Shown here: positions 17-43,859 of the stretch, piece after piece
Position numbering within the stretch: the stretch's first letter is position 1
Layout: the number at the start of each line of letters is the position of its first letter
Origin: a phage
DNA length: 64,000 nucleotides
Direction: 5' to 3' (one strand)
Sequence record: PZ452611.1
Translations under genes and position numbers: made by a program
Notes under the pieces: model-generated
Told to the model about the DNA's origin: nothing
The model's input: only the letters and a program-made list of their open reading frames with translations
Databases searched by the model: none

Positions 17-361
17 ATGTCCACACTGTGGCGAAAACCTGATTACCGTTTTCATCCTTCGGATTATGGTGGGTATTTACCGGAGGATGATGTAAACCCC
101 TGGTTTCCTGAATTTATAGCTCCACGTGATGCCTATCCAAAAATAACTTGCGGCTGGATAGGCAATGGATTTATAATCCCGGCCACAAAACCTGTCCCGC
201 AAATAGTTGACGCGGTTAGCGGGTATTCCATGCAACACGCCAAGCTGGGTGGAAAGAGTGCAAGAACGAAGATGATCCGAAGCCTCACGCCACGTGGCTG
301 GGCAAAAGCCGTATTCTTAGCAAACGAGCCTGTAGTAAGGAGCAGAATTAATGGGAAGTAA
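17..361 (+). CDS. hypothetical protein
   Basis: 114-aa ORF; ATG at 17 after AGGGG; stop overlaps start of next gene (ATGGGAAGTAA); no motif recognised. Confidence 0.4.
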   Translation: MSTLWRKPDYRFHPSDYGGYLPEDDVNPWFPEFIAPRDAYPKITCGWIGNGFIIPATKPVPQIVDAVSGYSMQHAKLGGKSARTKMIRSLTPRGWAKAVFLANEPVVRSRINGK

Positions 362-5590: not shown

Positions 5591-5875
5591 ATGGTAGTAG
5601 AGCCAACAAAAACATTTACATCCATGACCATTCCTGTTATTATGCAGGTGGAGTGTGTTCAGGTATCTCAAGTGTGGCCTGGCACCAAAATCCCAACAGG
5701 GCCTGATTTCTTTCAGGTTGGGAAAGTGTACAATGTCTGGAAGGCACCAGATTGTTACCCTTTCATTAAAGATGAACGTGGGATGCTGTGGTATCTTGGA
5801 AATGACTTGACACTGCACCTTGGGAATGCTATTATTGCAGTATTCAGATTTAACAAGAAGGAGACCGATCAATGA
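5591..5875 (+). CDS. hypothetical protein
   Basis: ATG with GAGGAG RBS 6 nt upstream; track ORF 5501-5875 trimmed to this start. Confidence 0.45.
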   Translation: MVVEPTKTFTSMTIPVIMQVECVQVSQVWPGTKIPTGPDFFQVGKVYNVWKAPDCYPFIKDERGMLWYLGNDLTLHLGNAIIAVFRFNKKETDQ

Positions 5876-6099
5876 CGACTTTGGTTAAAGCTACCTTTGT
5901 AGAAGAAAAGATGACAGACATGTCATTCTTTAAAGAAGGAAAGACCTACGAGGTTTATTACGATAAAGCTCGTGCAAACAAAATGATTAAAGACGAGGAA
6001 GGGGTTGACTGGTATATCTCTCACCTGGCAAACGGTGAGTATCATATCTACGGAACCACTTTGCTTGCCAAGTTTGTAGTTGTTGAAGAGGACCTATGA
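5872..6099 (+). CDS. hypothetical protein
   Basis: RBS AAGGAGA; ATGA start/stop overlap with upstream gene. Confidence 0.45.
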   Translation: MTTLVKATFVEEKMTDMSFFKEGKTYEVYYDKARANKMIKDEEGVDWYISHLANGEYHIYGTTLLAKFVVVEEDL

Positions 6100-6290
6100 A
6101 AGTAAAGTATCTTGCTGAAGGTATGAATAGGTATTTTACCCTTGGTGAAGAATATTGGCCCTTTACAAACAACGGCGATGTCTACGTGAAAGATAATTTC
6201 GGCACGCCGTGGTTTCTGCACTCTAATGGGCTGGGATACTCCATTTACTGCGGTGCAGTGAACAACACAACTCTTGCAGAGTTCGTTTAG
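6096..6290 (+). CDS. hypothetical protein
   Basis: RBS GAAGAGGA; coupled to upstream gene. Confidence 0.4.
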   Translation: MKVKYLAEGMNRYFTLGEEYWPFTNNGDVYVKDNFGTPWFLHSNGLGYSIYCGAVNNTTLAEFV

Positions 6291-6748: not shown

Positions 6749-7003
6749 ATGAAAATCATGTTGAAACCAGAATGCGTTGCAAACGACCGAGCTTTTAAAG
6801 ATTGCACACTTGGCGCTACTTATGAAGCAGAGTTTTGTGAGAACCCTTTGGTAAAAGCCCTTTTGGAAGAAGGGGCCCCTCTATCACAAGAAGAGCTTGA
6901 TGAGCTGGAAAACTCAGCACAGTGCCTTACCTTTAAAGATGATGAAGGAGACTCTGTCTGGTGCACTGTTAACGAAGTAGTTTTTGTAAAAACTGAACAT
7001 TAA
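6749..7003 (+). CDS. hypothetical protein (tandem paralogue 1)
   Basis: RBS TAAGGAGA; shares KPE..NDRAFKDCT and GDSVWCT motifs with 7067-7327. Confidence 0.5.
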   Translation: MKIMLKPECVANDRAFKDCTLGATYEAEFCENPLVKALLEEGAPLSQEELDELENSAQCLTFKDDEGDSVWCTVNEVVFVKTEH

Positions 7004-7006
7004 TAC

Positions 7007-7044
7007 TTGACAACAGCGATAGGACCTAATACAATGGTCCTATC
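7007..7044 (+). promoter_or_regulatory. sigma70-like promoter overlapped by 9-bp inverted repeat (operator-like)
   Basis: TTGACA-17-TACAAT; GATAGGACC (7018-7026) / GGTCCTATC (7036-7044) flank the -10. Confidence 0.45.
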
Positions 7045-7066
7045 AAAACGAAAGGGGACCACAGCA

Positions 7067-7327
7067 ATGACCAAACAATATCAACGAATTAAAGCCAAGG
7101 TTAAGCCAGACTACCTAGAGAAGGACTCTGCTTTTCGGGACTGCACAGCTGACAAAGTTTACACAGGGGCCGTCCTGTTGAACGATGAACTTGAAGTAGA
7201 TATTCTGGGTAAAGAGGCCGTTATCGAGGATGACAACGGTGACTGTGTTTTCTGCACCACACGGGAGCTAGAAGTCTTAGAATACTTCGGTGAAATCTTC
7301 AACTCCTTAGACGACGAGGAAGCGTGA
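7067..7327 (+). CDS. hypothetical protein (tandem paralogue 2)
   Basis: ATG 7067 after AAAGGGGA; KPDYLEKDSAFRDCT and GDCVFCT similar to 6749-7003. Confidence 0.5.
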   Translation: MTKQYQRIKAKVKPDYLEKDSAFRDCTADKVYTGAVLLNDELEVDILGKEAVIEDDNGDCVFCTTRELEVLEYFGEIFNSLDDEEA

Positions 7328-29523: not shown

Positions 29524-29552
29524 AGTAAAAAGAGGGGCCCAAGCCCCCCTCT
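29524..29552 (-). terminator. rho-independent terminator (minus strand)
   Basis: AGAGGGG/CCCCTCT stem; T-run on minus strand. Confidence 0.5.
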
Positions 29553-29558
29553 TTGTCA

Positions 29559-29892: not shown

Positions 29893-30144
29893 TTAACGTT
29901 CTACAAAAATACCGTTCAGTTCAATAACCAGGAATTTCTGGTCTTCACTATCGTCTCGTGCCAGCACCTCACAGACGTATCGGTCATCTCCATCATCATC
30001 GCAGTCAAATACAAGACTGAGAACTTTATCATGATAAACCTTCGCCACTACCGCCTCGTAAGTATTGCCGATTGTGAATCCAAGATAATCTCCAATGCAT
30101 TTGACAACAACATGATCGCCAGCATTCAAGTCAATCTTCGTCAT
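29893..30144 (-). CDS. hypothetical protein
   Basis: ATG (MTKIDL) 7 nt after AAGGAG; track ORF trimmed. Confidence 0.4.
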   Translation of the reverse strand: MTKIDLNAGDHVVVKCIGDYLGFTIGNTYEAVVAKVYHDKVLSLVFDCDDDGDDRYVCEVLARDDSEDQKFLVIELNGIFVER

Positions 30145-30299
30145 TACTGCGCTCCTTGGGTAATAATATTGTATGTAAAACTTTAACCAGAGATGTGAAT
30201 AACGCCCCAAAACACACCGATAGCGCTAAAACAGACAAGGCCATCATTAAAGCTTCAGTAAAATCAGTCACTCCTCACCTCTTGTTAGTCACTATACTG

Positions 30300-30563
30300 T
30301 CATTTATCCTTGCCGTCAAGAACTTTTTTAAATCTTTCAGGGATATCGCCTGTTCTTAGATAGCTCATGACCTCACAAGGTTCCCACTTGAATTTCTTAC
30401 AAAGCAGGGCGGCTGAGATTGTTTCATTGCGAAAAGAAAGGATATTAATATCCCATTCTGAGAACCCCAACTTCCGAAGGGTAGCTACAGAAATCCTCAC
30501 CGCAACCCAGCAGCAAAAACATGCAACAAACGCCACTGCTATAACCCACATCAGGATGTTCAT
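30300..30563 (-). CDS. membrane protein
   Basis: N-terminal TM helix. Confidence 0.4.
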   Translation of the reverse strand: MNILMWVIAVAFVACFCCWVAVRISVATLRKLGFSEWDINILSFRNETISAALLCKKFKWEPCEVMSYLRTGDIPERFKKVLDGKDK

Positions 30564-30652
30564 ATAAGCACCTTACTGAAATACAAGACACAGTGTTAAG
30601 GTTACTGACCAGCAAATAATTAATAGTGCCGTTGCAACCTTGGCAAGATTTA

Positions 30653-30940
30653 TCATAGTGCCTCTAAGATTTCATATCCTTCTGGTCGGAATACAAGCCA
30701 CTCCGTGGCTCCGTTTGGTCGATACGCTTTATACAGAACAACCTGATCTCGGCACATGCACATGGCTACATAGTTTTCATCCACACCTGCAGCCTGCATT
30801 GCATCTTCTTCTCCGGCAACTGCTTTGCTTACAACTTCCTTGGTAGGCAGGTGTGCGATCAGCTCGTCACCATCATTAATTCCAAAATGGCGGAGTTCTC
30901 CATTGGTATCTTTAATCTTAATCTTAACCAGATCTTTCAT
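30653..30940 (-). CDS. hypothetical protein
   Basis: ORF in tightly packed array. Confidence 0.4.
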   Translation of the reverse strand: MKDLVKIKIKDTNGELRHFGINDGDELIAHLPTKEVVSKAVAGEEDAMQAAGVDENYVAMCMCRDQVVLYKAYRPNGATEWLVFRPEGYEILEAL

Positions 30941-31269
30941 TAGTCTTCCTCCAGGTTCAAAGGCCCTAAGATTTCATATGCCAGATTAGAAGTTACCAGA
31001 GGGTCTTCTGCATCTTTAGTATTATACCACCCGTGGATAACTAGAGCTCCACCACGCTGCATGTCAAACTGGAACTGTTTTGCCATGTACTCATCAATCT
31101 CTAGGATTTCCATGAGGTATTTAATGTTTGGAAGATACGCAGTCACTACAGTTCCTTCCACCAATCCTTCAGGCCAACCCACGTCCGGATGACAATCTGG
31201 AACTAGAGTGGTCAGCTTAATGGTGTACGCTTTTTCTGCACGAGCCTTCAGTAACGGGTCAATCTTCAT
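30940..31269 (-). CDS. hypothetical protein
   Basis: ORF; start/stop overlaps. Confidence 0.4.
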   Translation of the reverse strand: MKIDPLLKARAEKAYTIKLTTLVPDCHPDVGWPEGLVEGTVVTAYLPNIKYLMEILEIDEYMAKQFQFDMQRGGALVIHGWYNTKDAEDPLVTSNLAYEILGPLNLEED

Positions 31270-31619
31270 TATTCGTCCTCCTCTTCGGTGCCTGCTTCCA
31301 GTAATAAGTTAAGAATATCTTCTGCACAAGGCTCATAGAACTCTTGACCTTCATTATCGATGATTTTGTAGTCATCCCCGCGAATAATCAGAGGATCACT
31401 CTCAAAATTATCGAGACCTTTAACAACGACAACACGATCGATTGCCATCATTGTAAGAACTTTATCGACATCTTCCTCTGCTACACCATACTGCAGTAGA
31501 ATGTCTTTGGTAGGAGGAACAGCATCTACCACAACACCGTTACCAAAACCTTCCGGCAAGTTAGCTAAAATATCTTCCGGAACCACACTAACATCAAAAC
31601 CAGTAATTTCTACTTTCAT
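31269..31619 (-). CDS. hypothetical acidic protein
   Basis: ORF; acidic. Confidence 0.4.
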   Translation of the reverse strand: MKVEITGFDVSVVPEDILANLPEGFGNGVVVDAVPPTKDILLQYGVAEEDVDKVLTMMAIDRVVVVKGLDNFESDPLIIRGDDYKIIDNEGQEFYEPCAEDILNLLLEAGTEEEDE

Positions 31620-31880
31620 TTACAGCACCTCTTCGTCAACTACTTCATAAAAATGGCCTGGGATTGCAATAGCGTTCTCACCTTCACCTACAAACACAGT
31701 TCCGTCAAGAATCAACATCATAAGAATTTCTGGAATATCCTCTTCCGGAACGTTGCCAAAACCTTTAATCAGTGTGTAGGTTGGAAGATTTACCTCTAAG
31801 ATGTCACCATCTTTAGAGCGGAAATCAACACCATCCTGAATCTCTGCCATTTCAAGGTTTTTCAGTTTAATCTTCATCAA
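31620..31880 (-). CDS. hypothetical protein
   Basis: ORF. Confidence 0.4.
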   Translation of the reverse strand: MMKIKLKNLEMAEIQDGVDFRSKDGDILEVNLPTYTLIKGFGNVPEEDIPEILMMLILDGTVFVGEGENAIAIPGHFYEVVDEEVL

Positions 31881-31956
31881 TCAGTCTCCCGTCTTGTTAA
31901 GATGAAGGTATTATTTCACACAGGGTTGGTGTTGTCAACACCTGTGTGCAAGAAAA

Positions 31957-32352
31957 TTACTGAAACAGTGCAGATAAATTACCTTCTGGTGGGAACTTAT
32001 CTGCCAAAAACGGTGTTAGCACAGTAGCCTTCTGAAGATCTGGGGTCCACTCGTTGTTCAGAACATCCCAGTAGTACGCAATGTTGCTGTGTGGGTGCCG
32101 CATTACGAACTTTTTCCCTTCGTAGTCATCTGAAACCTCTACAGAAGAAATAACAACAGAATCTTCAAGGGTTTCTTCATAGAAAGATCCGCCTTCAAAT
32201 TTCCAACGAGATGCAAGAGCCCCTGCCTTGAACGCTGCAGATAACGGACTGTCGGCAAGAACATACATTTCTTGCACTCTGTCGCTGCGATCTTTGCTTC
32301 TTACGTTGTACACAGTATCTGAGCTATACTCAACACGGTATAGGCTTACCAT
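31957..32352 (-). CDS. hypothetical protein (paralogue of 34159-34557)
   Basis: shares HP.S...YW....N.WTP......PL motif with 34159-34557. Confidence 0.45.
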   Translation of the reverse strand: MVSLYRVEYSSDTVYNVRSKDRSDRVQEMYVLADSPLSAAFKAGALASRWKFEGGSFYEETLEDSVVISSVEVSDDYEGKKFVMRHPHSNIAYYWDVLNNEWTPDLQKATVLTPFLADKFPPEGNLSALFQ

Positions 32353-32684
32353 TACCGCACCTCCTCAATAACTTCCACATCTGAACCCACCACAAATGCA
32401 AAAGGACAGGTTTCATGAAAGACATCCGGATCGCCGCCAAGCTTGCTAACAATTTCTCCACCACTAATAAACACAAGCTCACCGATATTCATCAGATTGC
32501 TGAAATAGTATCCATAATGATTAAAGAATGCAGCAGGGTCAGGTAGACTAGTAGCCTCAAGTTCTACATCGGTTGAGATTACTTTCTTATCATAACCTCT
32601 CGCCTTCTGAGATGCAAGATCTGCAGAATCTTCAGGCGACCGGAGATGCACAGGAATTGTTTCACCAATAAAGCGTACTTTCAT
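32352..32684 (-). CDS. hypothetical protein
   Basis: ATG (MKVRFIGE); track ORF trimmed. Confidence 0.35.
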   Translation of the reverse strand: MKVRFIGETIPVHLRSPEDSADLASQKARGYDKKVISTDVELEATSLPDPAAFFNHYGYYFSNLMNIGELVFISGGEIVSKLGGDPDVFHETCPFAFVVGSDVEVIEEVR

Positions 32685-32688
32685 ATTA

Positions 32689-32952
32689 TCACCCAACAAC
32701 CATAGCTTCAAAAGGGGTCATGAACGAATAAACGGCATCATCATCTGCTTCAGGGAATGCTCCCAAAGACTTCATGTCCGAGCCCTTGACAAATACAAGG
32801 TTTTGATCAAAAGCTTCTTGGGGGTCAATCCGATACATATTTCGTAGAATATCACCTACCTCTTCATCAAGAGGTGAGTATGCTGTGCACGTTTTTCCGA
32901 TCAAGCTTTGAGAATCAGGGTATCCACCTGAAGTTTTAAAATAAACAATCAT
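32689..32952 (-). CDS. hypothetical protein
   Basis: ORF. Confidence 0.35.
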   Translation of the reverse strand: MIVYFKTSGGYPDSQSLIGKTCTAYSPLDEEVGDILRNMYRIDPQEAFDQNLVFVKGSDMKSLGAFPEADDDAVYSFMTPFEAMVVG

Positions 32953-33043
32953 ATAGTATCACCTCTGGTAAGAGATTGGGATTCCTTTCCCACAAATAAT
33001 TACAAATCTTCCTTATCGAGGAAGTATGCTAATCCAAGCAGGA

Positions 33044-33313
33044 TTATTCCTCTACAATCTCATACACATCAGGAGTTACAATCAACTCTTCTCCGTTACC
33101 CGGTGCAACAAACACCACCAAACCTTCAGGTGTGTGCTTTTTAGCCATCTCGATAACATCTTCGCGCAGAGCTGGCTCCATCAGATCAAAACCTTCACCC
33201 AGGGCATCACGAACCACCTTCATATAGTCCACTGGTTGTGCTTCAACAATCATGCCTTCAACCAGTCCACAGTTTTTGTCTGCCAGCTCAGTTTTGAATA
33301 ATTTAATTTTCAT
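33044..33313 (-). CDS. hypothetical protein
   Basis: ORF. Confidence 0.4.
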   Translation of the reverse strand: MKIKLFKTELADKNCGLVEGMIVEAQPVDYMKVVRDALGEGFDLMEPALREDVIEMAKKHTPEGLVVFVAPGNGEELIVTPDVYEIVEE

Positions 33314-33450
33314 TTAGAGGTCTCCTCAATTATTTGATATTAATAGCCGTAACCTAACACATTAACTACAATTGCGATTGCAAACATAATTTCAAAGCAT
33401 GCAATCTCTACATTTGGGACTAATTTCTTAATCACACCCATTGTAGCACC

Positions 33451-33768
33451 TCATTCTCCAAAGTCAATCTTTACTTTGCCTTTCCCCTTACCTTTCTTTC
33501 CACCACATTTAGCCAGCTGACGTGCTGCAACATCTACCATACGGTCAGTTGCCTCGTAAGCATCACTGCCTTTAGCTTTGGCAATAACTTCTTTTCCAGA
33601 ATTGTCAAAAATGAACGCCATAACTTCCTGGTGATCATTTTCAACTTTTACACTCACACGTGCATAGTTGGCAGAGGGGTGCAAACGCTCCAGCTTAGAC
33701 ATTTTGTGGGAAATGAAAGACACCATACCTTCAGTGATTTCTACGTTGCCAGTGATTTCAATTTGCAT
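33451..33768 (-). CDS. hpf: ribosome hibernation promoting factor / RaiA (YfiA) family homologue
   Basis: MQIEITGNVEITEGM...KLERL...VKVEN...GKEVIAKAKGSDAYEATDRMVDVAARQLAK aligns along its length with E. coli HPF (MQLNITGNNVEITEA...KLEQY...KVEK...GGEIHASAEGQDMYAAIDGLIDKLARQLTK); own promoter 33816-33844 and 5'-UTR hairpin. Confidence 0.7.
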   Translation of the reverse strand: MQIEITGNVEITEGMVSFISHKMSKLERLHPSANYARVSVKVENDHQEVMAFIFDNSGKEVIAKAKGSDAYEATDRMVDVAARQLAKCGGKKGKGKGKVKIDFGE

Positions 33769-33815
33769 AACGTGTTCCTTTTAAAGAAGAGGGAACCAAA
33801 CCCTCTTTGAAAACA

Positions 33816-33844
33816 ATGATACTAAATCTGAAGCGTTGTGTCAA
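33816..33844 (-). promoter_or_regulatory. sigma70-like promoter upstream of hpf-like gene
   Basis: minus strand TTGACA-17-TATCAT, then hairpin AAAGAGGG...CCCTCTTT and RBS. Confidence 0.5.
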
Positions 33845-33850
33845 CAGTTT

Positions 33851-34141
33851 TTACAGCTTGTTGTCGATAGTTTTTAAAATATCTACAGCAAGATCTGCCA
33901 TTTTTCGAACATACTCTGCAAACTCAACAGGATCCTTGATCAAAGAATTCACAGGGTCGTACCCTAGAGCGTTCAAAATGGCTGCAGCATCTACAACCTT
34001 CTCATCATTTGCGAAGATCTCTCCGTCAAACTTGTAGGTCCATTTTGAGTCAACCTTAGCAGAGCAGGGTTTGTCCATGCTTGTTACACCATCGTCTTTA
34101 AACTCTCCTGCGTTATCAATATTCAGAACTAAATCCATCAT
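33851..34141 (-). CDS. hypothetical protein
   Basis: ORF. Confidence 0.4.
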   Translation of the reverse strand: MMDLVLNIDNAGEFKDDGVTSMDKPCSAKVDSKWTYKFDGEIFANDEKVVDAAAILNALGYDPVNSLIKDPVEFAEYVRKMADLAVDILKTIDNKL

Positions 34142-34158
34142 AGTGGTACCTCACTGTT

Positions 34159-34557
34159 TCAGTTTAGCTTTTCTTCAACAACCCCATAGCTTGGGACAGA
34201 ATCAAGAGCTTTCTGGTTTAAAAGTGGTGTAGCAGAATCTGCAAACGGTGTCCAAGTTTTTGTTCTGGAATTCCAGTAATGCTTCACTCTGGAATCTGGA
34301 TGCACTATAACAAAAACTTTTTCACTTGTCAACACATTAATTTCTTCTACACCCTTGCTGATAATTTCTCCGTCATAGCCCCCAGTCTGGTATCCTTCGT
34401 ACCAGGTTCTTGCATAGGCATAGCCAGCCTGCCAGCATGCAGCCTCCTCCGAGGTGGAGATTACGTAGAAGTCCTTCTCAAATTCCGGAATACGCCCTTG
34501 CTTTACGCTCCAAGCTCCGCGAATTTTCATTGTAACTTTGAACAGTTTATTTTTCAC
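34159..34557 (-). CDS. hypothetical protein (paralogue of 31957-32352)
   Basis: sequence similarity to 31957-32352. Confidence 0.45.
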   Translation of the reverse strand: MKNKLFKVTMKIRGAWSVKQGRIPEFEKDFYVISTSEEAACWQAGYAYARTWYEGYQTGGYDGEIISKGVEEINVLTSEKVFVIVHPDSRVKHYWNSRTKTWTPFADSATPLLNQKALDSVPSYGVVEEKLN

Positions 34558-34569
34558 AACGGTTACCCA

Positions 34570-34824
34570 TCACAGCTCTGCAATATCTGCATCTGACCCT
34601 ACCCCAAAGGCATAATAGGACTCTTCCCCGAAATAATATTCAGGTGCACCAGCGGTGATCAGGTCTGATCCTAAGATAAACACCACGTTGTGGCCTACAT
34701 AACTGTGATGTTGCCGCACAGGATCATCCCACGGCAACCCTTCAAAGTATACCGCAGGAACGACCTTTCCCTTCAGGAAGGATTGTCCCAAGTAGACGTT
34801 AGAATCAAGAATTTTAACCTTCAT
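34570..34824 (-). CDS. hypothetical protein (MKVK.LD family paralogue)
   Basis: MKVKILDSNVYLGQ...DLITAGAPE shared with 34814-35041 and 38469-38702. Confidence 0.45.
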   Translation of the reverse strand: MKVKILDSNVYLGQSFLKGKVVPAVYFEGLPWDDPVRQHHSYVGHNVVFILGSDLITAGAPEYYFGEESYYAFGVGSDADIAEL

Positions 34825-35041
34825 GATCGTCCTCCACTACCTCTACATCCTCGCCTAGGGCAAAGTTGTAGGTCCACTGACTGTCAAAGCAGTCCTGAGG
34901 TGCACCAGCGGCAATAAGATCTGCTCCTTTTATTTTTAAAAGGTCAGGGTAATCTTCGTTAGGGACAGCAGTAAACACTTTTCCTACTAAAGGCTCCTGA
35001 CCAATATAGAAGCTTGAATCTAAAACTTTAACTTTCATCAA
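34814..35041 (-). CDS. hypothetical protein (MKVK.LD family paralogue)
   Basis: MKVKVLDSSFYIGQ...DLIAAGAPQ. Confidence 0.45.
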   Translation of the reverse strand: MMKVKVLDSSFYIGQEPLVGKVFTAVPNEDYPDLLKIKGADLIAAGAPQDCFDSQWTYNFALGEDVEVVEDDHEG

Positions 35042-35325
35042 CGGTCTCCATCAGGTGGTTGTGGGACGTAAACACTGTTACGAATATCGTCCGCAGTATA
35101 GTAATAAGTGTCTCCAACCCTATCTCTGGCTGCAATGTACTCTGCTATGCCAATAAGTGCCATTGATTTGGTGGCGTATCTTCCCAACTCGTTAGCTCCC
35201 CAGTAGAATTTAGACCAATAGGGAATAAGACCGAACAAATATACCTTTTGACGAACTTCCCAGTAAGTGCCTTTCCCGACAAGTTTAAACTCGACTTCAC
35301 CACTGTTAATCTTTTTCATTATCAA
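35038..35325 (-). CDS. hypothetical protein
   Basis: ORF. Confidence 0.4.
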   Translation of the reverse strand: MIMKKINSGEVEFKLVGKGTYWEVRQKVYLFGLIPYWSKFYWGANELGRYATKSMALIGIAEYIAARDRVGDTYYYTADDIRNSVYVPQPPDGDR

Positions 35326-35618
35326 TCTCCCTCCACCGTGGTCGGATTGTCAGTAAGAAATTGAGCATTAGCTGGAGGCACACCTGACATTTTCCACACA
35401 ACCATAAGTTTGTAACCAGGCACTCTATTAAGTGCAGATCGAGTAGAGTTTGTGCACGTATATTTTCGCTTTCCAAACCCGTTCTCAAGCATGATCCAGT
35501 ATCCCGTGTCTTTATCACCTGGAATTGGTAATCCCTCATCGTCCACCCATTGAATGGACCATGGCACGATGGCTACAGCTTTATATTTAAACTTTTTAAA
35601 CCACTCAAAAAGTTTCAT
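35322..35618 (-). CDS. hypothetical protein
   Basis: ORF. Confidence 0.4.
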   Translation of the reverse strand: MKLFEWFKKFKYKAVAIVPWSIQWVDDEGLPIPGDKDTGYWIMLENGFGKRKYTCTNSTRSALNRVPGYKLMVVWKMSGVPPANAQFLTDNPTTVEGD

Positions 35619-35713
35619 AATTCAGCCTCGCATAGACATAATCACTATAAACAGGCAAACAATGAATCCGAATGCCACGCCACCCATAAACGTTAATATT
35701 GATGCAATCATAG

Positions 35714-35899
35714 TCAATCAGCCTCGCTTGGCAACTCTTCCACCTTAACATGCCGAAAAGTGTTACCGTAATGGTTGATCCATGACATCAGCTCACTTTC
35801 TTGCTCTTCCTCTGGGATGAACTCTCGAATACTGACAAGTTTTAAGAAAACCCAATCACAATCTGCACCCATTCTACCAGACAGACAATAGTGCTTCAT
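35714..35899 (-). CDS. hypothetical protein
   Basis: ORF. Confidence 0.3.
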   Translation of the reverse strand: MKHYCLSGRMGADCDWVFLKLVSIREFIPEEEQESELMSWINHYGNTFRHVKVEELPSEAD

Positions 35900-35918
35900 A
35901 AAAACCCTCCATCCTGGT

Positions 35919-36119
35919 TTAGAATACTGCCTCTTTTAATGATCCAAGGAGCAGCAGGTGTGAAATCTGATCCACATCCATGGTAGATTCAATCTCCTCT
36001 TTTTTGAAAGGTTCTCGGCAAAACAGTACTACATTTGGGTTTTCGCTACGCACTATATAATACAGATCGTTCAAATCATTCTCATAGTAGGTATTAAATT
36101 TAAGAATTTTGTCACTCAT
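35919..36119 (-). CDS. hypothetical protein
   Basis: ORF. Confidence 0.35.
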   Translation of the reverse strand: MSDKILKFNTYYENDLNDLYYIVRSENPNVVLFCREPFKKEEIESTMDVDQISHLLLLGSLKEAVF

Positions 36120-36403
36120 TTTCTAATCCTCTTCTTAGATTTTTGTGCAGAAACGCTTTCTGCAATACGAGACAGGCGTTCTTCTGAAGCTTTACCTACC
36201 CCAGGTTTCTTGAGCGGGTTATCTTTATGACCGCAATCCAATTGGATGCTAGATACCTCCCCAACCTTGTAAGTCAATTCTAACAAAAGGTTGTCGTCCT
36301 TGTCAAATGTTTTTACGATAAATTTTTTATCGTCCTCCTGAACTTCATACCTAGTACCTGCAGTATACAGCATGGTGCCATCAGTGTAGGATATCCAAAT
36401 CAT
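36116..36403 (-). CDS. hypothetical protein
   Basis: ORF. Confidence 0.4.
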   Translation of the reverse strand: MIWISYTDGTMLYTAGTRYEVQEDDKKFIVKTFDKDDNLLLELTYKVGEVSSIQLDCGHKDNPLKKPGVGKASEERLSRIAESVSAQKSKKRIRK

Positions 36404-36747
36404 TGCACCTCCTTCTGCTGCAACAGCATTAACTCTTTGTTGGAAATCTTTACTGCTGTCTTTATTGTTCCATCTTCACGGAACCACGACCAGAATTCTA
36501 CAGTGTCACCACTATCAAGCAAGGCATGACCATGGTAAAAATCCTTGTCCTTAGACAGTTTCTCATCTATATCTGCATCGACACATTCGTGATCCATAGC
36601 ATTTTGCCTGAATGCATCGGTTATGCCAATGCATGCCTTGCTCTCAAGACTGGTATATCCGATATCTTTTAATTCAGTTTCCCAAGTCCAGTATCCTACA
36701 AAAGCCACAACAGCTACCCACATTAATATCGATTTAATCTTTGACAT
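36400..36747 (-). CDS. membrane-anchored/secreted protein
   Basis: N-terminal hydrophobic segment MSKIKSILMWVAVVAFVGYWTW. Confidence 0.4.
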   Translation of the reverse strand: MSKIKSILMWVAVVAFVGYWTWETELKDIGYTSLESKACIGITDAFRQNAMDHECVDADIDEKLSKDKDFYHGHALLDSGDTVEFWSWFREDGTIKTAVKISNKELMLLQQKEVQ

Positions 36748-36807
36748 TCTCTCTACCTCTTTCTTAATTTGTTTAATTATGGCACATCCTTTGTGCCTTG
36801 TTGCACA

Positions 36808-37269
36808 CTACTTAAACAACAGTTCAAAATAGTGCAAAATTAACAGAAGTTGAATTACGCCTAGCACAACAGCAAGTATGTTAATCTTAGAATCAAAAAA
36901 CTTCTTAACTTTTACCCTAAAAGGTTCCTTAATGTCCTTTACGATCCTATCTATAGATGACCTCATATCCCTGATTACCATCCTGAACATTAAAGACGGA
37001 TGATCCCTCTCTGTAACGGAATCGAAAACATACTCTCTTTGATCACAAGGGCCGCCAGCTCTGCGTATTAACCTCTCCACAGAGACCTCGTACGACACAC
37101 CTGTAACGTAATCATCTATGACAAGGAGTGACGGGTCTTTATCGTCCAAGGGTATCAAAGTTATCTTTCCAGATTTTGTTAAAATTTCTCCTTTTTCAAG
37201 TAAGGTGTACCAATGCTCTCTGCCAAGACTGTTGAGGCACGTTTTTACATATTTAACAAACATCGTCAC
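36808..37269 (-). CDS. hypothetical protein
   Basis: ORF; C-terminal hydrophobic segment. Confidence 0.4.
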   Translation of the reverse strand: MTMFVKYVKTCLNSLGREHWYTLLEKGEILTKSGKITLIPLDDKDPSLLVIDDYVTGVSYEVSVERLIRRAGGPCDQREYVFDSVTERDHPSLMFRMVIRDMRSSIDRIVKDIKEPFRVKVKKFFDSKINILAVVLGVIQLLLILHYFELLFK

Positions 37270-37469
37270 CCCTCATCGCACGTCTGATATAACCACTCTA
37301 TAAAATCTTGATACCATTCGCCCTCTGAGCGCTCCGTAGGCCAATAATCTTCACCCTCTCGTGCATTAAAATCTGAGTATTCAACTTTCCACTCCTTTAC
37401 CAGCTCGTGGAGAAGGTTTTCAGCCTGCTCTAAAGATTTATTTTTTGCCATTGCTGTCTCCTTTTTCAA
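37266..37469 (-). CDS. hypothetical protein
   Basis: ORF. Confidence 0.35.
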   Translation of the reverse strand: MKKETAMAKNKSLEQAENLLHELVKEWKVEYSDFNAREGEDYWPTERSEGEWYQDFIEWLYQTCDEG

Positions 37470-37670
37470 GATAGTTATACATCAGAACTGCACCACCTAA
37501 GATGGCTACCAGTAACAATACCCCAGATAGCATCTCAATAAACATGGCTTGAAACACTGGAAGGTCTCCCTAAATTAACGCACCATTTTAAATACATGCT
37601 CTTTTCCCATAAAGGTGCCTGGCTAAGATCTGCGTAGAACGCAATCTCTTTAAGAACAGTATAAACAGTT

Positions 37671-37907
37671 TTAGGTGCGGTCTCCATCCCTACTCTCCTT
37701 TTTCTCCTTACGGATATTCTTGTAGTAATCAACTAGGCACATTATTACAATGAAGATAACAATAGGCCAAAAAGGTGCAGCAGTGATGATGGTGATAAAA
37801 TCATCAAACTTCACCTTTCGTCTAGCTACGATGCATACACCTGTCAAGAATACCGCTGTTATAACGGCTATTACCAGGTAACCTATTAGCACAGCATTTA
37901 TACTCAT
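37671..37907 (-). CDS. membrane protein (2 TM)
   Basis: two hydrophobic helices. Confidence 0.4.
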   Translation of the reverse strand: MSINAVLIGYLVIAVITAVFLTGVCIVARRKVKFDDFITIITAAPFWPIVIFIVIMCLVDYYKNIRKEKKESRDGDRT

Positions 37908-37938
37908 TAGTCCTCCCTTTTGTAGGTTAAATTATATA

Positions 37939-38472
37939 CTACAGATGGTTGCTTATGGTGTCAAGAAAATTATCTCGTTCTTTCTCGGAGTTTTCACAGG
38001 TGTAGCTGAAAAACATATCTAGAATAACCTTATTGATATATTCCAGCTCCTCTGTGTTCAGGTACTTAGCAGGATCTACAATGACATCCCAAATATCATA
38101 CAGACCACACTCATGATATCCATAACGCCACTCAATTGTCAAGCTGAGCGGCAAATCTTTACCGTCACAAACAACCTTCCATCTACATATGTTGGTATCT
38201 GGGCGTATCTGTGCACGGTATACCTGTACAAAATCCAATTTGAATTTGAGGTATTCGTCATGCAATTTAAGCACAAAGCTCTCGATTTGTGGAGACACTT
38301 TTGCAGCAAACTGTGCGTATTTGTATTTGCACTGGATGATCTTTCTGCGTTTTGCAGTTAAATTTTTTGCCGCCAGTTGTTCTTCAGTGTATCTCCACCT
38401 ACGATCAACAAACGCAACAGGGTCTTTGTCCCCATAGAGGTCTTCCCAGTTAATCAGAAGCATACCTGTCAC
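37939..38472 (-). CDS. hypothetical protein
   Basis: 177-aa ORF. Confidence 0.45.
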   Translation of the reverse strand: MTGMLLINWEDLYGDKDPVAFVDRRWRYTEEQLAAKNLTAKRRKIIQCKYKYAQFAAKVSPQIESFVLKLHDEYLKFKLDFVQVYRAQIRPDTNICRWKVVCDGKDLPLSLTIEWRYGYHECGLYDIWDVIVDPAKYLNTEELEYINKVILDMFFSYTCENSEKERDNFLDTISNHL

Positions 38473-38702
38473 TCCTCCACAACTTCAAGGCCTTTGCCGC
38501 CTCGTTCTGGTAGATTACTTAAAGACAGGTAATACGTATAGTCAGGAGAGATCCTGCCAGACTCTGCACCTGCAGCTAATAAATCTTTTCCCTTAACCAT
38601 GACAACATTATCGTTTGCAGATAACCGTTTTGCTTCCACAATTTTACCAATGCAGTCAACCAAGGAAGGGTATCCTAAATCTGTAAGAAATTTAACTTTC
38701 AT
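38469..38702 (-). CDS. hypothetical protein (MKVK.LD family paralogue)
   Basis: MKVKFLTDLGY...DLLAAGAESG. Confidence 0.45.
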   Translation of the reverse strand: MKVKFLTDLGYPSLVDCIGKIVEAKRLSANDNVVMVKGKDLLAAGAESGRISPDYTYYLSLSNLPERGGKGLEVVEE

Positions 38703-38741
38703 GCTACCTCCTACTTCTACCGTCCCTGGTAAGATAAATTA

Positions 38742-39140
38742 TTACTGAACAGAGCGCGGAGCTGGGAAGGATAACTCTTCTAAAGAGAAGATTTCATTTC
38801 CCACAATCCATGTTGCCGGATCATCTGGGTTGACTGGATAGATAATCATCACCTCGTCCGTGTTACATACCCGCTTTTTACCTGTGAGGTTATCAGCAAC
38901 CCGCATGCGCGGTTCTTCAGAAATACACAGGTAGCCTCCTCGGCCCACTGTTCCTTCCACAGGATCCTGCCCTTTGATTACAATGATTATCTTCTCCCCT
39001 GTGGCGATATTGCCTTGCACACTAACAGTTTGACCAACTTTAGATGTGCCGAACTTGGTGGTTTCAAACATTAAATCTCGAATTACTGTTGCATAGTCTC
39101 CAGACACTTTCTTACCTTCTTTAGTGATCTCAATCTTCAT
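38742..39140 (-). CDS. hypothetical protein
   Basis: ORF. Confidence 0.4.
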   Translation of the reverse strand: MKIEITKEGKKVSGDYATVIRDLMFETTKFGTSKVGQTVSVQGNIATGEKIIIVIKGQDPVEGTVGRGGYLCISEEPRMRVADNLTGKKRVCNTDEVMIIYPVNPDDPATWIVGNEIFSLEELSFPAPRSVQ

Positions 39141-39409
39141 ACACTGGGCTCCTTAAATGAATCTATGTAATCAATTAAATCCCAAGCATCCCTATGACCT
39201 GTCAGAGGGTATACTTCTCCAAGAGGGATCATAGCAATAAGTCTATCAAAAACCCAATCTGGACGCAACATTTTATGGTGATACTCCCACTCACCTTCTA
39301 CAGACTTTTTCTGAGTGATCAGGATCTCTGTGTAGTGTTTCGCCTGTCTTGAGTAGATTGAGAATGACTTGTACATAAATGACCCCCTCTTGTTGAAAAC
39401 AAAATACAC
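39137..39409 (-). CDS. hypothetical protein
   Basis: ORF. Confidence 0.4.
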   Translation of the reverse strand: MYFVFNKRGSFMYKSFSIYSRQAKHYTEILITQKKSVEGEWEYHHKMLRPDWVFDRLIAMIPLGEVYPLTGHRDAWDLIDYIDSFKEPSV

Positions 39410-39411
39410 TA

Positions 39412-39726
39412 CTACCAGGTCACTGTCAAGTAGGCAACTGTGTTATTTTTCTCCGGAGAGATGCCAACAACATCCACCTGCAGACCTCCTGCCCTCAAAT
39501 CCCCAACAATGTGCGGGAAGTAATCTGAGAGATGCGAGGGTAGATTTATCGAAAATCCGCATCCCAGAAAGCCTGCTAACGCTTTATTTTGTATCTCCCC
39601 TACAATCGCATCATAAATGGAGTTAAGCTCGTCAGGGAGCGTTACAGGACGTTTTAGCGCTAACTGGTGTAATTTGTCCTTAGCACTCATTTTCATTTCA
39701 GGTCTACCTCTGGTGGTGCCAACCAC
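39412..39726 (-). CDS. hypothetical protein
   Basis: ORF; overlaps methyltransferase 3' end. Confidence 0.35.
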   Translation of the reverse strand: MVGTTRGRPEMKMSAKDKLHQLALKRPVTLPDELNSIYDAIVGEIQNKALAGFLGCGFSINLPSHLSDYFPHIVGDLRAGGLQVDVVGISPEKNNTVAYLTVTW

Positions 39727-40226
39727 ATAAATGGCGGCAAGCCTAAACGGTTTTTCTTATCCCACACAAAATATGCATATGCTTGCCCGTCAGTTCTGCC
39801 ATTTGATTGAAATGACGGACGCTTAGATATTGTGATCACAGTGGTAGGTGCATTATCAAGCCACCATTCAAATCTGGCTTTGCTTTCCAGAAAATTAAGA
39901 CGTAAAAGCATAATAACTACGTCAGCATCTTTCAACGCCTTGTCTACAAACTCACGAGCCAAGCTGTATGGTGGGTTGGTGATAATACAGTCAACATGGT
40001 TGTATTCTGTATTCAGATAGTCAACACCTTCTTGGATTTCTCCCCATGCAGATCCTAACGGCATACGGGAGTAGAACACACCTGAGGCACTATTCCTGCA
40101 AGGCTCTAAGTAGGTCCAGTCTTCTGGGAACGGAATAAGGTCATACAGCCCTTCTGCACACCACTCCGGTGTCACATACTCATCGTAGGCGTTACGTTGT
40201 TCATCAGGTTTTCTAGCACAAGTCAT
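39693..40226 (-). CDS. N6-adenine methyltransferase-like protein (probably DNA)
   Basis: motif IV DCIITNPPY; 177 aa. Confidence 0.6.
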   Translation of the reverse strand: MTCARKPDEQRNAYDEYVTPEWCAEGLYDLIPFPEDWTYLEPCRNSASGVFYSRMPLGSAWGEIQEGVDYLNTEYNHVDCIITNPPYSLAREFVDKALKDADVVIMLLRLNFLESKARFEWWLDNAPTTVITISKRPSFQSNGRTDGQAYAYFVWDKKNRLGLPPFMWLAPPEVDLK

Positions 40227-43152: not shown

Positions 43153-43626
43153 TTAGTCAACCTGAACCCAACCACCTGCTACCTTTTTAAACATTCTTTG
43201 GTTATCACTGCCTCTAAAGGGTTTTTTGGTGGGGTTATCTTTTTCGTACTTACCATCCATAATGTAATCAACACTATCTTTAATGTGATCAGGGACTTCT
43301 TCAAACAAATACCCTGTGTACACCCAGATAGTTTTTGTGTTGCCGAAGCGTTCACGGATAGCACAAATGATTGAATACATACCATCAATATTGTAAGGCG
43401 CTAAAGGCTCGCCACCGCATAATGTAACGCCGGTAATATGGTTTGGTTCTATAGAGCTAAGTATGCTCTCAATTGTGTCATTTGTTAACGGTTCCCCTTT
43501 AGCTGGGGACCAAACACTTTTGTTTTGGCAACCTACGCAGTGATGTGGACAACCAGAACAGAACACTGTTGTCCTAATACCTGGGCCGTCAACCATGCTA
43601 CACTCTATAATATTAACAACATTCAT
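43153..43626 (-). CDS. nrdG: anaerobic ribonucleotide reductase activating protein (radical SAM)
   Basis: CSGCPHHCVGC radical-SAM cluster motif; adjacent to nrdD. Confidence 0.8.
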   Translation of the reverse strand: MNVVNIIECSMVDGPGIRTTVFCSGCPHHCVGCQNKSVWSPAKGEPLTNDTIESILSSIEPNHITGVTLCGGEPLAPYNIDGMYSIICAIRERFGNTKTIWVYTGYLFEEVPDHIKDSVDYIMDGKYEKDNPTKKPFRGSDNQRMFKKVAGGWVQVD

Positions 43627-43859
43627 TCCTTGCCCTCTTTGAGGTAGGGATATTCAGGCCCACAATAATCTCTATCTAAGAAAACAGCTTCTTCCCCTCT
43701 GGAATCAGTAGATTTATAATACCCATCACCCTGGTAACTAACGAACCAGTAGCACCCATCATCGCTTTCTACTGTTGTGGCTCTGTCCGAATGAAAGATA
43801 ATTTCGTAATCCTTACCGAATGTAAACCATCTGTTAGCTTTTACACAGACACCTATCAT
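43623..43859 (-). CDS. hypothetical protein
   Basis: ORF coupled to nrdG. Confidence 0.4.
   Translation of the reverse strand: MIGVCVKANRWFTFGKDYEIIFHSDRATTVESDDGCYWFVSYQGDGYYKSTDSRGEEAVFLDRDYCGPEYPYLKEGKE

Follow-up and report, generated by a model that had tools for sequence, protein, structure and literature searches.

The DNA analyzed here is a single strand of 64,000 nucleotides from a phage (sequence record PZ452611.1; 'the window' below means this whole stretch), and the subject is a set of small genes that lie mostly on its minus-strand arm, together with a few on the plus-strand arm. Two gene arms could be recognized from GC skew and the orientation of open reading frames (ORFs), with genes on the plus strand up to ~28 kb and on the minus strand after that. 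The window is the known E. coli phage rV5 (NC_011041, Vequintavirus): bases 30000-40000 showed 100% identity to rV5 as well as to E. coli O157 typing phage 5, and 122 phage records matched them at an identity of at least 80%. No tRNAs were found in the 64-kb window. Locus names follow RefSeq rV5 (rv5_gp numbers, here mostly shortened to gp); the rV5 paper uses ORF numbers. An initial annotation, made by reading the sequence without database searches, had proposed that three proteins of ~80 amino acids (aa) (gp122, gp135 and gp136, here family A), two of ~131 aa (gp137 and gp144, family B) and a tandem plus-arm pair (rv5_gp215 and rv5_gp214, family C) were paralogues, and that such duplication and divergence was characteristic of diversifying accessory loci. 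All seven ORFs are present with the coordinates and strands that it gave, and RefSeq labels all of them hypothetical proteins. Their starts also agree, except that RefSeq begins gp135 at an ATG at 35038 (a TTG at 35041 in the initial annotation) and rv5_gp214 at 7034 (formerly 7067). On the basis of the current results, ~17 hypothetical proteins of the window could be reduced to five families, one of them with a predicted fold.

The motifs behind the proposed groupings were found in the translations: MKVKxLD...GKxV...DLI/LxAGA in gp122, gp135 and gp136, HPxS...YW...WTP in gp137 and gp144, and KP...AFK/RDCT and GDxVxCT in the plus-arm pair. The all-versus-all BLASTP comparison that had been suggested as a check was performed with 474 ORFs of at least 40 aa from both strands, and pairs of overlapping ORFs were filtered out. 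The three proposed similarities were the top three non-overlapping pairs, that is, gp137/gp144 (the best pair, E=3e-7, 28% identity over 119 aa), gp135/gp122 (E=1e-6) and 6749-7003 versus 7007-7327 (E=3e-6), and the fourth-ranked pair reached only E=2e-3. It should be noted that gp135/gp136 is missing from this ranking because the two genes overlap by 11 nt and were dropped by the filter. This still tandem pair was the strongest when Smith-Waterman scores were compared with those of 2000 composition-preserving shuffles and converted to Gumbel p values (score 132 versus a mean of 24.5 ± 4.6, p ~7e-14). The other pairs gave p values of 8e-9 (gp135/gp122), 2e-4 (gp136/gp122), 4e-10 (gp137/gp144) and 4e-8 (rv5_gp215/rv5_gp214). 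Matches in the PHROGs database pointed in the same direction. Full-length matches to phrog_5009 were observed for gp136 (7e-32), gp135 (2e-38) and gp122 (6e-36), and phrog_7379 was matched at positions 1-131 of 131 by gp144 (2e-66) and gp137 (1e-73). In family C, rv5_gp215 corresponded to phrog_12544 (3e-58) with a cross-match to phrog_11936 (3.6e-5), and rv5_gp214 to phrog_11936 (9e-56) with a cross-match to phrog_12544 (3.7e-5). Thus, BLASTP, shuffles and PHROGs all gave significance beyond the short motifs, the lack of which would have spoken against the initial proposal. Although the proteins are short, have unspecific traits in common (an MK(V/I)K start, an acidic C-terminus), and show pairwise paralogue identities of only 23-46%, the idea that their similarities reflect chance or the composition of short acidic ORFs, or that the ORFs are not genes, is refuted by the BLASTP ranking, by the same groups being formed independently in PHROGs, by the very low shuffle p values and by ratios of nonsynonymous to synonymous substitution rates (dN/dS) well under 1 in ORFs that are kept in distant relatives, so that its probability is negligible.

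The pairs listed initially were real, but the list was an undercount: family A has five members, and two extra families, D and E, could be identified (Table 1). A hidden Markov model (HMM) of family A built without gp143 found this protein at E=5e-6, and the next of the 474 ORFs had E=1.3; gp143 has no direct match to phrog_5009, and its shuffle p value was 2e-5 against both gp135 and gp136. For gp142, the family A HMM score (E=5.5e-25) was obtained with gp142 and its orthologues in the seed alignment. Independent support came from a cross-match to phrog_5009 (1.2e-4), from hhalign probabilities of 88-92% to gp135, gp136 and gp122, and from shuffle p values of 3e-4 to 6e-3. Families D and E were defined by iterative phmmer, hhalign on orthologue-group profiles and HMM searches. 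In family D, iterative phmmer joined rv5_gp218 and rv5_gp217 to the ORF at 43623-43859, with shuffle p values of 2e-5 to 4e-4; all three members match phrog_3249, the third one at E=8e-27 with a further cross-match to phrog_12623. An HMM derived from the orthologue groups of gp145 and gp146 retrieved gp148 (1e-4), gp141 (3e-4) and gp147 (7e-4), and no other ORF among the 474 scored below E=1. Within family E, hhalign probabilities were 85-97% (for gp141, 94% to gp145 and 89% to gp148) and shuffle p values 4e-5 to 2e-3. About 12 of the 30 genes between 30.6 and 38.7 kb thus belong to families A, B and E. No link between families A and E was found by hhalign (best probability 11%), and none between family A and families C or D by shuffle tests.

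Table 1. Members of the paralogue families and annotated promoters in the window (coordinates are window positions)
Feature	Family	Length	Position	Strand	Remarks
gp122 (ORF127)	A	77 aa	38469-38702	-	no loop insertion; most conserved copy
gp135 (ORF140)	A	74 aa	34814-35038	-	minimal form of the predicted fold; tandem with gp136
gp136 (ORF141)	A	84 aa	34570-34824	-	loop insertion of ~14 aa
gp142 (ORF147)	A	87 aa	32689-32952	-	loop insertion of ~20 aa; added to the initial list
gp143 (ORF148)	A	110 aa	32352-32684	-	insertion of ~48 aa; added to the initial list
gp137 (ORF142)	B	132 aa	34159-34557	-	
gp144 (ORF149)	B	131 aa	31957-32352	-	
rv5_gp215 (ORF220)	C	84 aa	6749-7003	+	
rv5_gp214 (ORF219)	C	97 aa	7034-7327	+	length as annotated; 86 aa from 7067
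rv5_gp218	D		5872-6099	+	tandem with rv5_gp217; added to the initial list
rv5_gp217	D		6096-6290	+	tandem with rv5_gp218; added to the initial list
third member	D	78 aa	43623-43859	-	other arm, between anaerobic ribonucleotide reductase genes
gp148	E		30653-30940	-	added to the initial list
gp147	E		30940-31269	-	added to the initial list
gp146	E		31269-31619	-	added to the initial list
gp145	E		31620-31877	-	added to the initial list
gp141 (ORF146)	E	89 aa	33044-33313	-	fifth member
sigma-70-type promoter			41758-41730	-	11/12 consensus, intergenic, annotated in RefSeq
sigma-70-type promoter P144			33844-33816	-	11/12 consensus, annotated in NC_011041; upstream of the HPF/RaiA gene and gp140-gp144
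sigma-70-type promoter P150			31938-31910	-	11/12 consensus, extended -10, annotated in NC_011041; between gp144 and gp145

Part of this picture is already known, as the genome is public and the main groupings exist as PHROGs. The window proteins match phrog_5009, phrog_7379, phrog_12544/phrog_11936 and phrog_3249 end to end (E 1e-27 to 1e-73), and these entries already imply the grouping of gp122, gp135 and gp136 and that of gp137 and gp144. Unlike the families defined here, PHROGs split gp142 (phrog_13920) and gp143 (phrog_13661) into families of their own and hold the five members of family E in five separate families, and the entries carry no statement on function, fold or paralogy. The paralogues are not mentioned in the rV5 genome paper. 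The modest new points are the five-member family A, its predicted SH3-like fold with a variable loop, family E, a natural deletion and a chimera, and a link to temperate phages, each of which is described below.

To characterize selection on the individual copies, dN/dS was calculated by the Nei-Gojobori method over the homologous region, comparing the window in turn with L005-L009, five vequintaviruses from across the genus. Orthologues were used for this purpose, synonymous sites being saturated between the paralogues. The ratios were 0.05-0.16 in family A (0.10 for both gp122 and gp136), whose full-length copies had 94-100% protein identity, and 0.05-0.18 in family B (0.05 for gp144). Neighbouring small genes mostly had ratios of 0.02-0.22, one of them, ORF143, reaching 0.42, and the methyltransferase, ClpP-like protease and PhoH-like genes had 0.00-0.04. 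In nearly all Vequintavirus genomes, every paralogue is matched 1:1 by an orthologue at the corresponding position. In tblastn searches, 117 of the 118 records that matched gp137 did so at an identity of at least 94%, and the gp122-type gene occurred in all 126 of its matching records (at least 80% identity in 119); gp122 and gp144 were present in all loci examined.

Outside the genus, the full-length relatives recovered by an exhaustive HMMER search of 1.84 billion cluster representatives with the family B profile were limited to two additional proteins, P0050 and P0051; the search also returned a few long and repetitive sequences that matched in multiple short stretches and were treated as spurious. 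These two proteins are carried by distant relatives of rV5, L010 (124 kb) and L013 (138.7 kb), of which 13% and at most 6% of the query, respectively, aligned to deposited phages by megablast. The gene array is syntenic in both, with complete conservation of gene order in L010. This relative has the whole of family A (five members) and, from family B, the gp144 type, whereas L013 has just one type from each family, gp122 from A and gp137 from B. The identity of gp122 to its orthologue is 74% in L010 and 66% in L013, and P0050 is the gp144 orthologue in L010 (40% identity, same position). Because each family B paralogue is closer to its distant counterpart (40% and 39%) than to its own paralogue (27%), the duplication in this family predates the L010 and L013 lineages. 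The expansion of family A predates the split between rV5 and L010. Considering the near-universal orthologues, the low dN/dS and the synteny of the array, the paralogues are old duplicates, each copy of which is now under purifying selection.

Several of these genes can nevertheless be absent from natural phages. In the viable BASEL phage Bas59 (EduardKellenberger, L005), 3.8 kb corresponding to window positions 34245-38066 are deleted, which removes gp124-gp136 and three quarters of gp137; the phage hence lacks both gp135 and gp136. At the junction (L005 6017-6031) there is an overlap of ~15 nt, and gp123 is fused in frame to the last 33 residues of gp137. This fusion is labelled 'putative glycosidase' in the record. 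A second kind of change was observed in P0014 and P0016 (L015:3001-3213 and L016:3001-3213), where a single protein of 70 aa stands in place of the gp135/gp136 pair; it follows gp135 up to DLIAAGA and gp136 after it. The chimera was found in two independent assemblies and is the product of an unequal crossover between the paralogues. In addition, gp142 and gp143 are shortened in V18 and in V18 only, which might be due to sequencing errors. Since viable natural isolates lack gp135, gp136 and most of gp137, the genes are accessory, at least in part.

Such copy-number changes, namely the Bas59 deletion, the chimeras and the truncated gp142 and gp143 of V18, might be taken as signs of an actively diversifying accessory locus, as read by the initial annotation, which would imply a paralogue arms race with rapid turnover and positive selection. 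The size of family A, which differs among distant relatives (five members in rV5, five in L010 and one in L013), would agree with it as well. However, neither elevated dN/dS nor rapid turnover among close relatives was found. The low ratios and high protein identities across five divergent genomes, the presence of gp137 and the gp122 type in almost all or all matching records and the conserved gene order in L010 make this explanation improbable. Thus, the part of the initial claim that concerned true paralogy and accessory status is retained, whereas ongoing rapid diversification is not supported; paralogy does not imply rapid diversification here, where the copies are old and constrained.

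The distribution of the families beyond vequintaviruses was limited. Homologues of the gp122 type (43-49% identity) were detected in the temperate coliphages mEp021, mEp013 and mEp554 and in several E. coli prophages, always in a block of small ORFs between a Q-like antiterminator and the holin. This is exactly the position of the morons or accessory ORFs that lie between Q and the lysis genes of temperate coliphages; unlike in those phages, gp122 of rV5 belongs to a five-member family in a virulent phage. Transfer of the whole block was also considered, but the other small ORFs of the prophage block had no homologue in the window, and the gp122-type gene alone was common to both. The gp122-like type has moved between virulent vequintaviruses and temperate coliphages. 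A gp143-like protein of 107 aa (P0048) was present in an E. coli assembly. When 5.8 billion proteins were examined by word-indexed searches, family A gave only members from vequintaviruses and E. coli prophages, with 33 matches each time, and family B gave only vequintavirus sequences. Protein, tblastn and HMMER searches likewise restricted family B to vequintavirus-like phages. A RefSeq note on similarity between gp137 and a protein of Listeria phage A118 could not be reproduced, as tblastn against 50,697 phage records (E<=0.01) returned vequintaviruses only. The ORF at 17-361 (+), of 114 aa, is 57-59% identical to part of a putative DNA cytosine methyltransferase of mEp021 and E. coli prophages, and is a second gene common to rV5 and the temperate phages that bear a gp122-like gene.

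Structure prediction provided further information on families A and B. The AlphaFold2 model of gp135, based on a 27-sequence alignment, had a predicted local distance difference test score (pLDDT) of 90.1 and a predicted template-modelling score (pTM) of 0.78. It shows a small barrel of five short strands and one short helix formed by the G-x-D-L-I-x-A-G-A motif, and its structural matches were SH3-like only. The length variation of family A (0, ~14, ~20 and ~48 residues) falls between strands 2 and 3, and a second indel of 7 residues lies in the last hairpin. Family A is therefore predicted to be an SH3-like beta-barrel of ~70 residues with a variable loop. The model resembles SH3-like barrels such as SH3, KOW, PsaE and the retroviral integrase C-terminal domain, but family A could not be placed in their sequence families, in that no Pfam match, to SH3/KOW or related families or otherwise, was obtained at E<=1 and no PDB sequence match at E<=10. 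The short helix, which follows strand 3 in the model, is absent from canonical SH3 domains.

The model of gp137, for which only six sequences were available, reached a pLDDT of 81.8, and the five models disagreed (82 down to 42). In BFVD it resembled many uncharacterized proteins of 60-78 aa from large myoviruses, but only the V18 orthologue was significant. Its likeness to eL20/LX, to PurS-type beta-beta-alpha-beta folds and to T7 Gp2 is at the fold level only and comes from a model whose confidence is moderate and uneven. No structural match was obtained for the conserved HPxS...YW...WTP half at the C-terminus, which has no counterpart in any of these three proteins. Superposition and sequence family combined did not place gp137 among eL20/LX or PurS-like proteins, and it did not correspond to T7 Gp2, an acidic beta-beta-alpha-beta protein of ~60 aa that binds the beta-prime jaw of E. 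coli RNA polymerase.

The array is preceded and interrupted by strong sigma-70-type promoters (Table 1), and on the plus arm an annotated promoter of this type, P220, lies directly upstream of rv5_gp215 in family C. Three further matches with 11 of 12 consensus positions were observed on the coding strand at 38142-38113 (in gp123), 36306-36277 (in gp130) and 34332-34304 (in gp137), which might be internal promoters or chance. It has been reported that rV5 genes 82-163 are part of a single transcription unit that also includes genes for nucleotide metabolism and replication, and that host-type (sigma-70) promoters occur across the whole rV5 genome (PMC3606486). The middle of the array also contains a gene for the ribosome hibernation factor HPF/RaiA (33451-33768, minus strand), which immediately follows a strong sigma-70 promoter. 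Its L010 orthologue contains the Pfam domain Ribosomal_S30AE; identities are 97-99% within the genus and 64% in L010, and no orthologue was found in L013. Most members of the families have an isoelectric point (pI) of 4.0-4.9 and nearly all have a net charge of -6 to -12, gp137 (pI 7.8) being not acidic. In its main text, the rV5 virion proteomics study (PMC3606486) names none of the family members as a virion protein. The same study lists rv5_gp128 (ORF133) among the predominant proteins in virion mass spectrometry (PMC3606486). It is odd for a virion component that this gene (36808-37263, minus strand) sits mid-array among non-structural small genes and is missing from Bas59.

Taken together, the explanation that we favour and consider fairly probable is that old, true paralogue families in sigma-70-driven operons of rV5 encode accessory proteins that are small, mostly acidic and not part of the virion, and that may modulate host factors. 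The families arose by gene duplication, a process that the tandem gp135/gp136 still displays directly, and the copies then diverged to their present low identities, in family A by insertions of different length in one loop of the predicted barrel. Each copy is kept by purifying selection across the genus, even though several can be lost without killing the phage. Every paralogue might serve as a small protein-binding module, the variable loop of family A directing each copy to a host target of its own. The set would act intracellularly during infection on host factors, either in takeover or in countering host defences, and could give the phage an advantage on certain natural hosts, though not on K-12 in the laboratory.

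Several observations weigh against this view. No Pfam, PADLOC or PDB sequence match was obtained for ten proteins and the family profiles (for PADLOC models, none at E<=1 for the ten proteins), the rV5 and mEp021 papers contain nothing functional on the members, and no literature was found on the paralogues, on transcriptomics or on the function of these genes. Near-universal conservation in the genus would also fit genes that serve a housekeeping function during infection instead of an accessory, host-specific one, and the disagreement among the five family B models makes that fold less certain. In addition, sigma-70 promoters are spread over the whole genome (PMC3606486) and so do not mark these genes as 'early'.

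A bolder version, which we regard as rather unlikely, is that families A and E, perhaps together with C and D, represent a lineage-specific expansion of one small-barrel scaffold into at least 10 binders, each of which would use its own loop insertion against a separate host factor or immune protein. They would then form a compact and evolvable toolkit for counter-defence or takeover, from which the gp122 type was traded with temperate phages. The pattern common to these families, in which an MK(V/I)K first strand is followed by a variable middle and the protein ends in an acidic xEVVEE-like stretch, agrees with this idea. It is less probable still that the genes constitute a translation-control module with the phage HPF, directed at RNA or the ribosome, in which family B would resemble rRNA-binding eL20/LX and family A the KOW/SH3-type barrels. 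The position of the HPF/RaiA gene inside the array, in the same operon as gp140-gp144, would suit such a module, but the strong acidity of the proteins is unlike that of rRNA-binding proteins, no sequence similarity to ribosomal or KOW families was found, and gp135, gp136 and gp137 are located in the upstream operon and not in that of HPF. A T7 Gp2-like role of family B as inhibitor of host RNA polymerase, with the other families as similar factors for transcription takeover, appears very improbable. The families do consist of small acidic phage proteins in sigma-70-dependent operons; however, shut-off of host RNA polymerase is unlikely because rV5 appears to use host-type promoters throughout its genome (PMC3606486). 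The Gp2 match is also weak, covering ~50 residues of a generic beta-beta-alpha-beta unit, no sequence similarity was found, and gp137 is not acidic.

The organization that we favour, old families of accessory proteins acting on host factors, has parallels in other large phages. Paralogous small-gene clusters are common in them. Small and mostly non-essential genes are also clustered in the hyperplastic regions of T4-like phages and in the host-takeover module of SPO1, which are likewise large virulent phages. The rV5 array is similar to these in its dense genes of 60-130 codons with overlapping starts and stops, its host-type promoters, its mostly acidic products, their dispensability in the laboratory and a content that varies between related phages. 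On the other hand, no sequence relationship to the T4 or SPO1 clusters was found, an unusually large share of the rV5 array falls into only three paralogue families, and the array is almost invariant within the genus. The results reveal no new mechanism and are ordinary for a large phage. They tidy the annotation of rV5-like phages, a group that finds use in phage typing and in therapy cocktails and to which the BASEL phage Bas59 belongs. They also provide an experimental set composed of five paralogues with one predicted scaffold and differences mainly in a single loop, of Bas59 as a natural deletion mutant and of a temperate-coliphage homologue.

Some minor features of the region may also be mentioned. 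In the metagenomic relative L013 (13532-14644), an IS605 OrfB/TnpB (Cas12f-like) gene is inserted in the syntenic small-gene array, and in JEP1 (L007:1-3406) and Mangalyan (L009:1-2824), HNH homing endonuclease genes split the gene for the large subunit of anaerobic ribonucleotide reductase, the split in JEP1 being annotated as 'Phage intron'. Eighteen unannotated 'Campylobacter phage' records (MG0656xx, host Campylobacter jejuni) are 96-97% identical to rV5 in this region, and their host assignment looks doubtful. Finally, a GC-rich hairpin with a 9-bp stem at 29529-29554, near the convergence of the two arms, scored as a terminator on both strands and coincides with an annotated rho-independent terminator.

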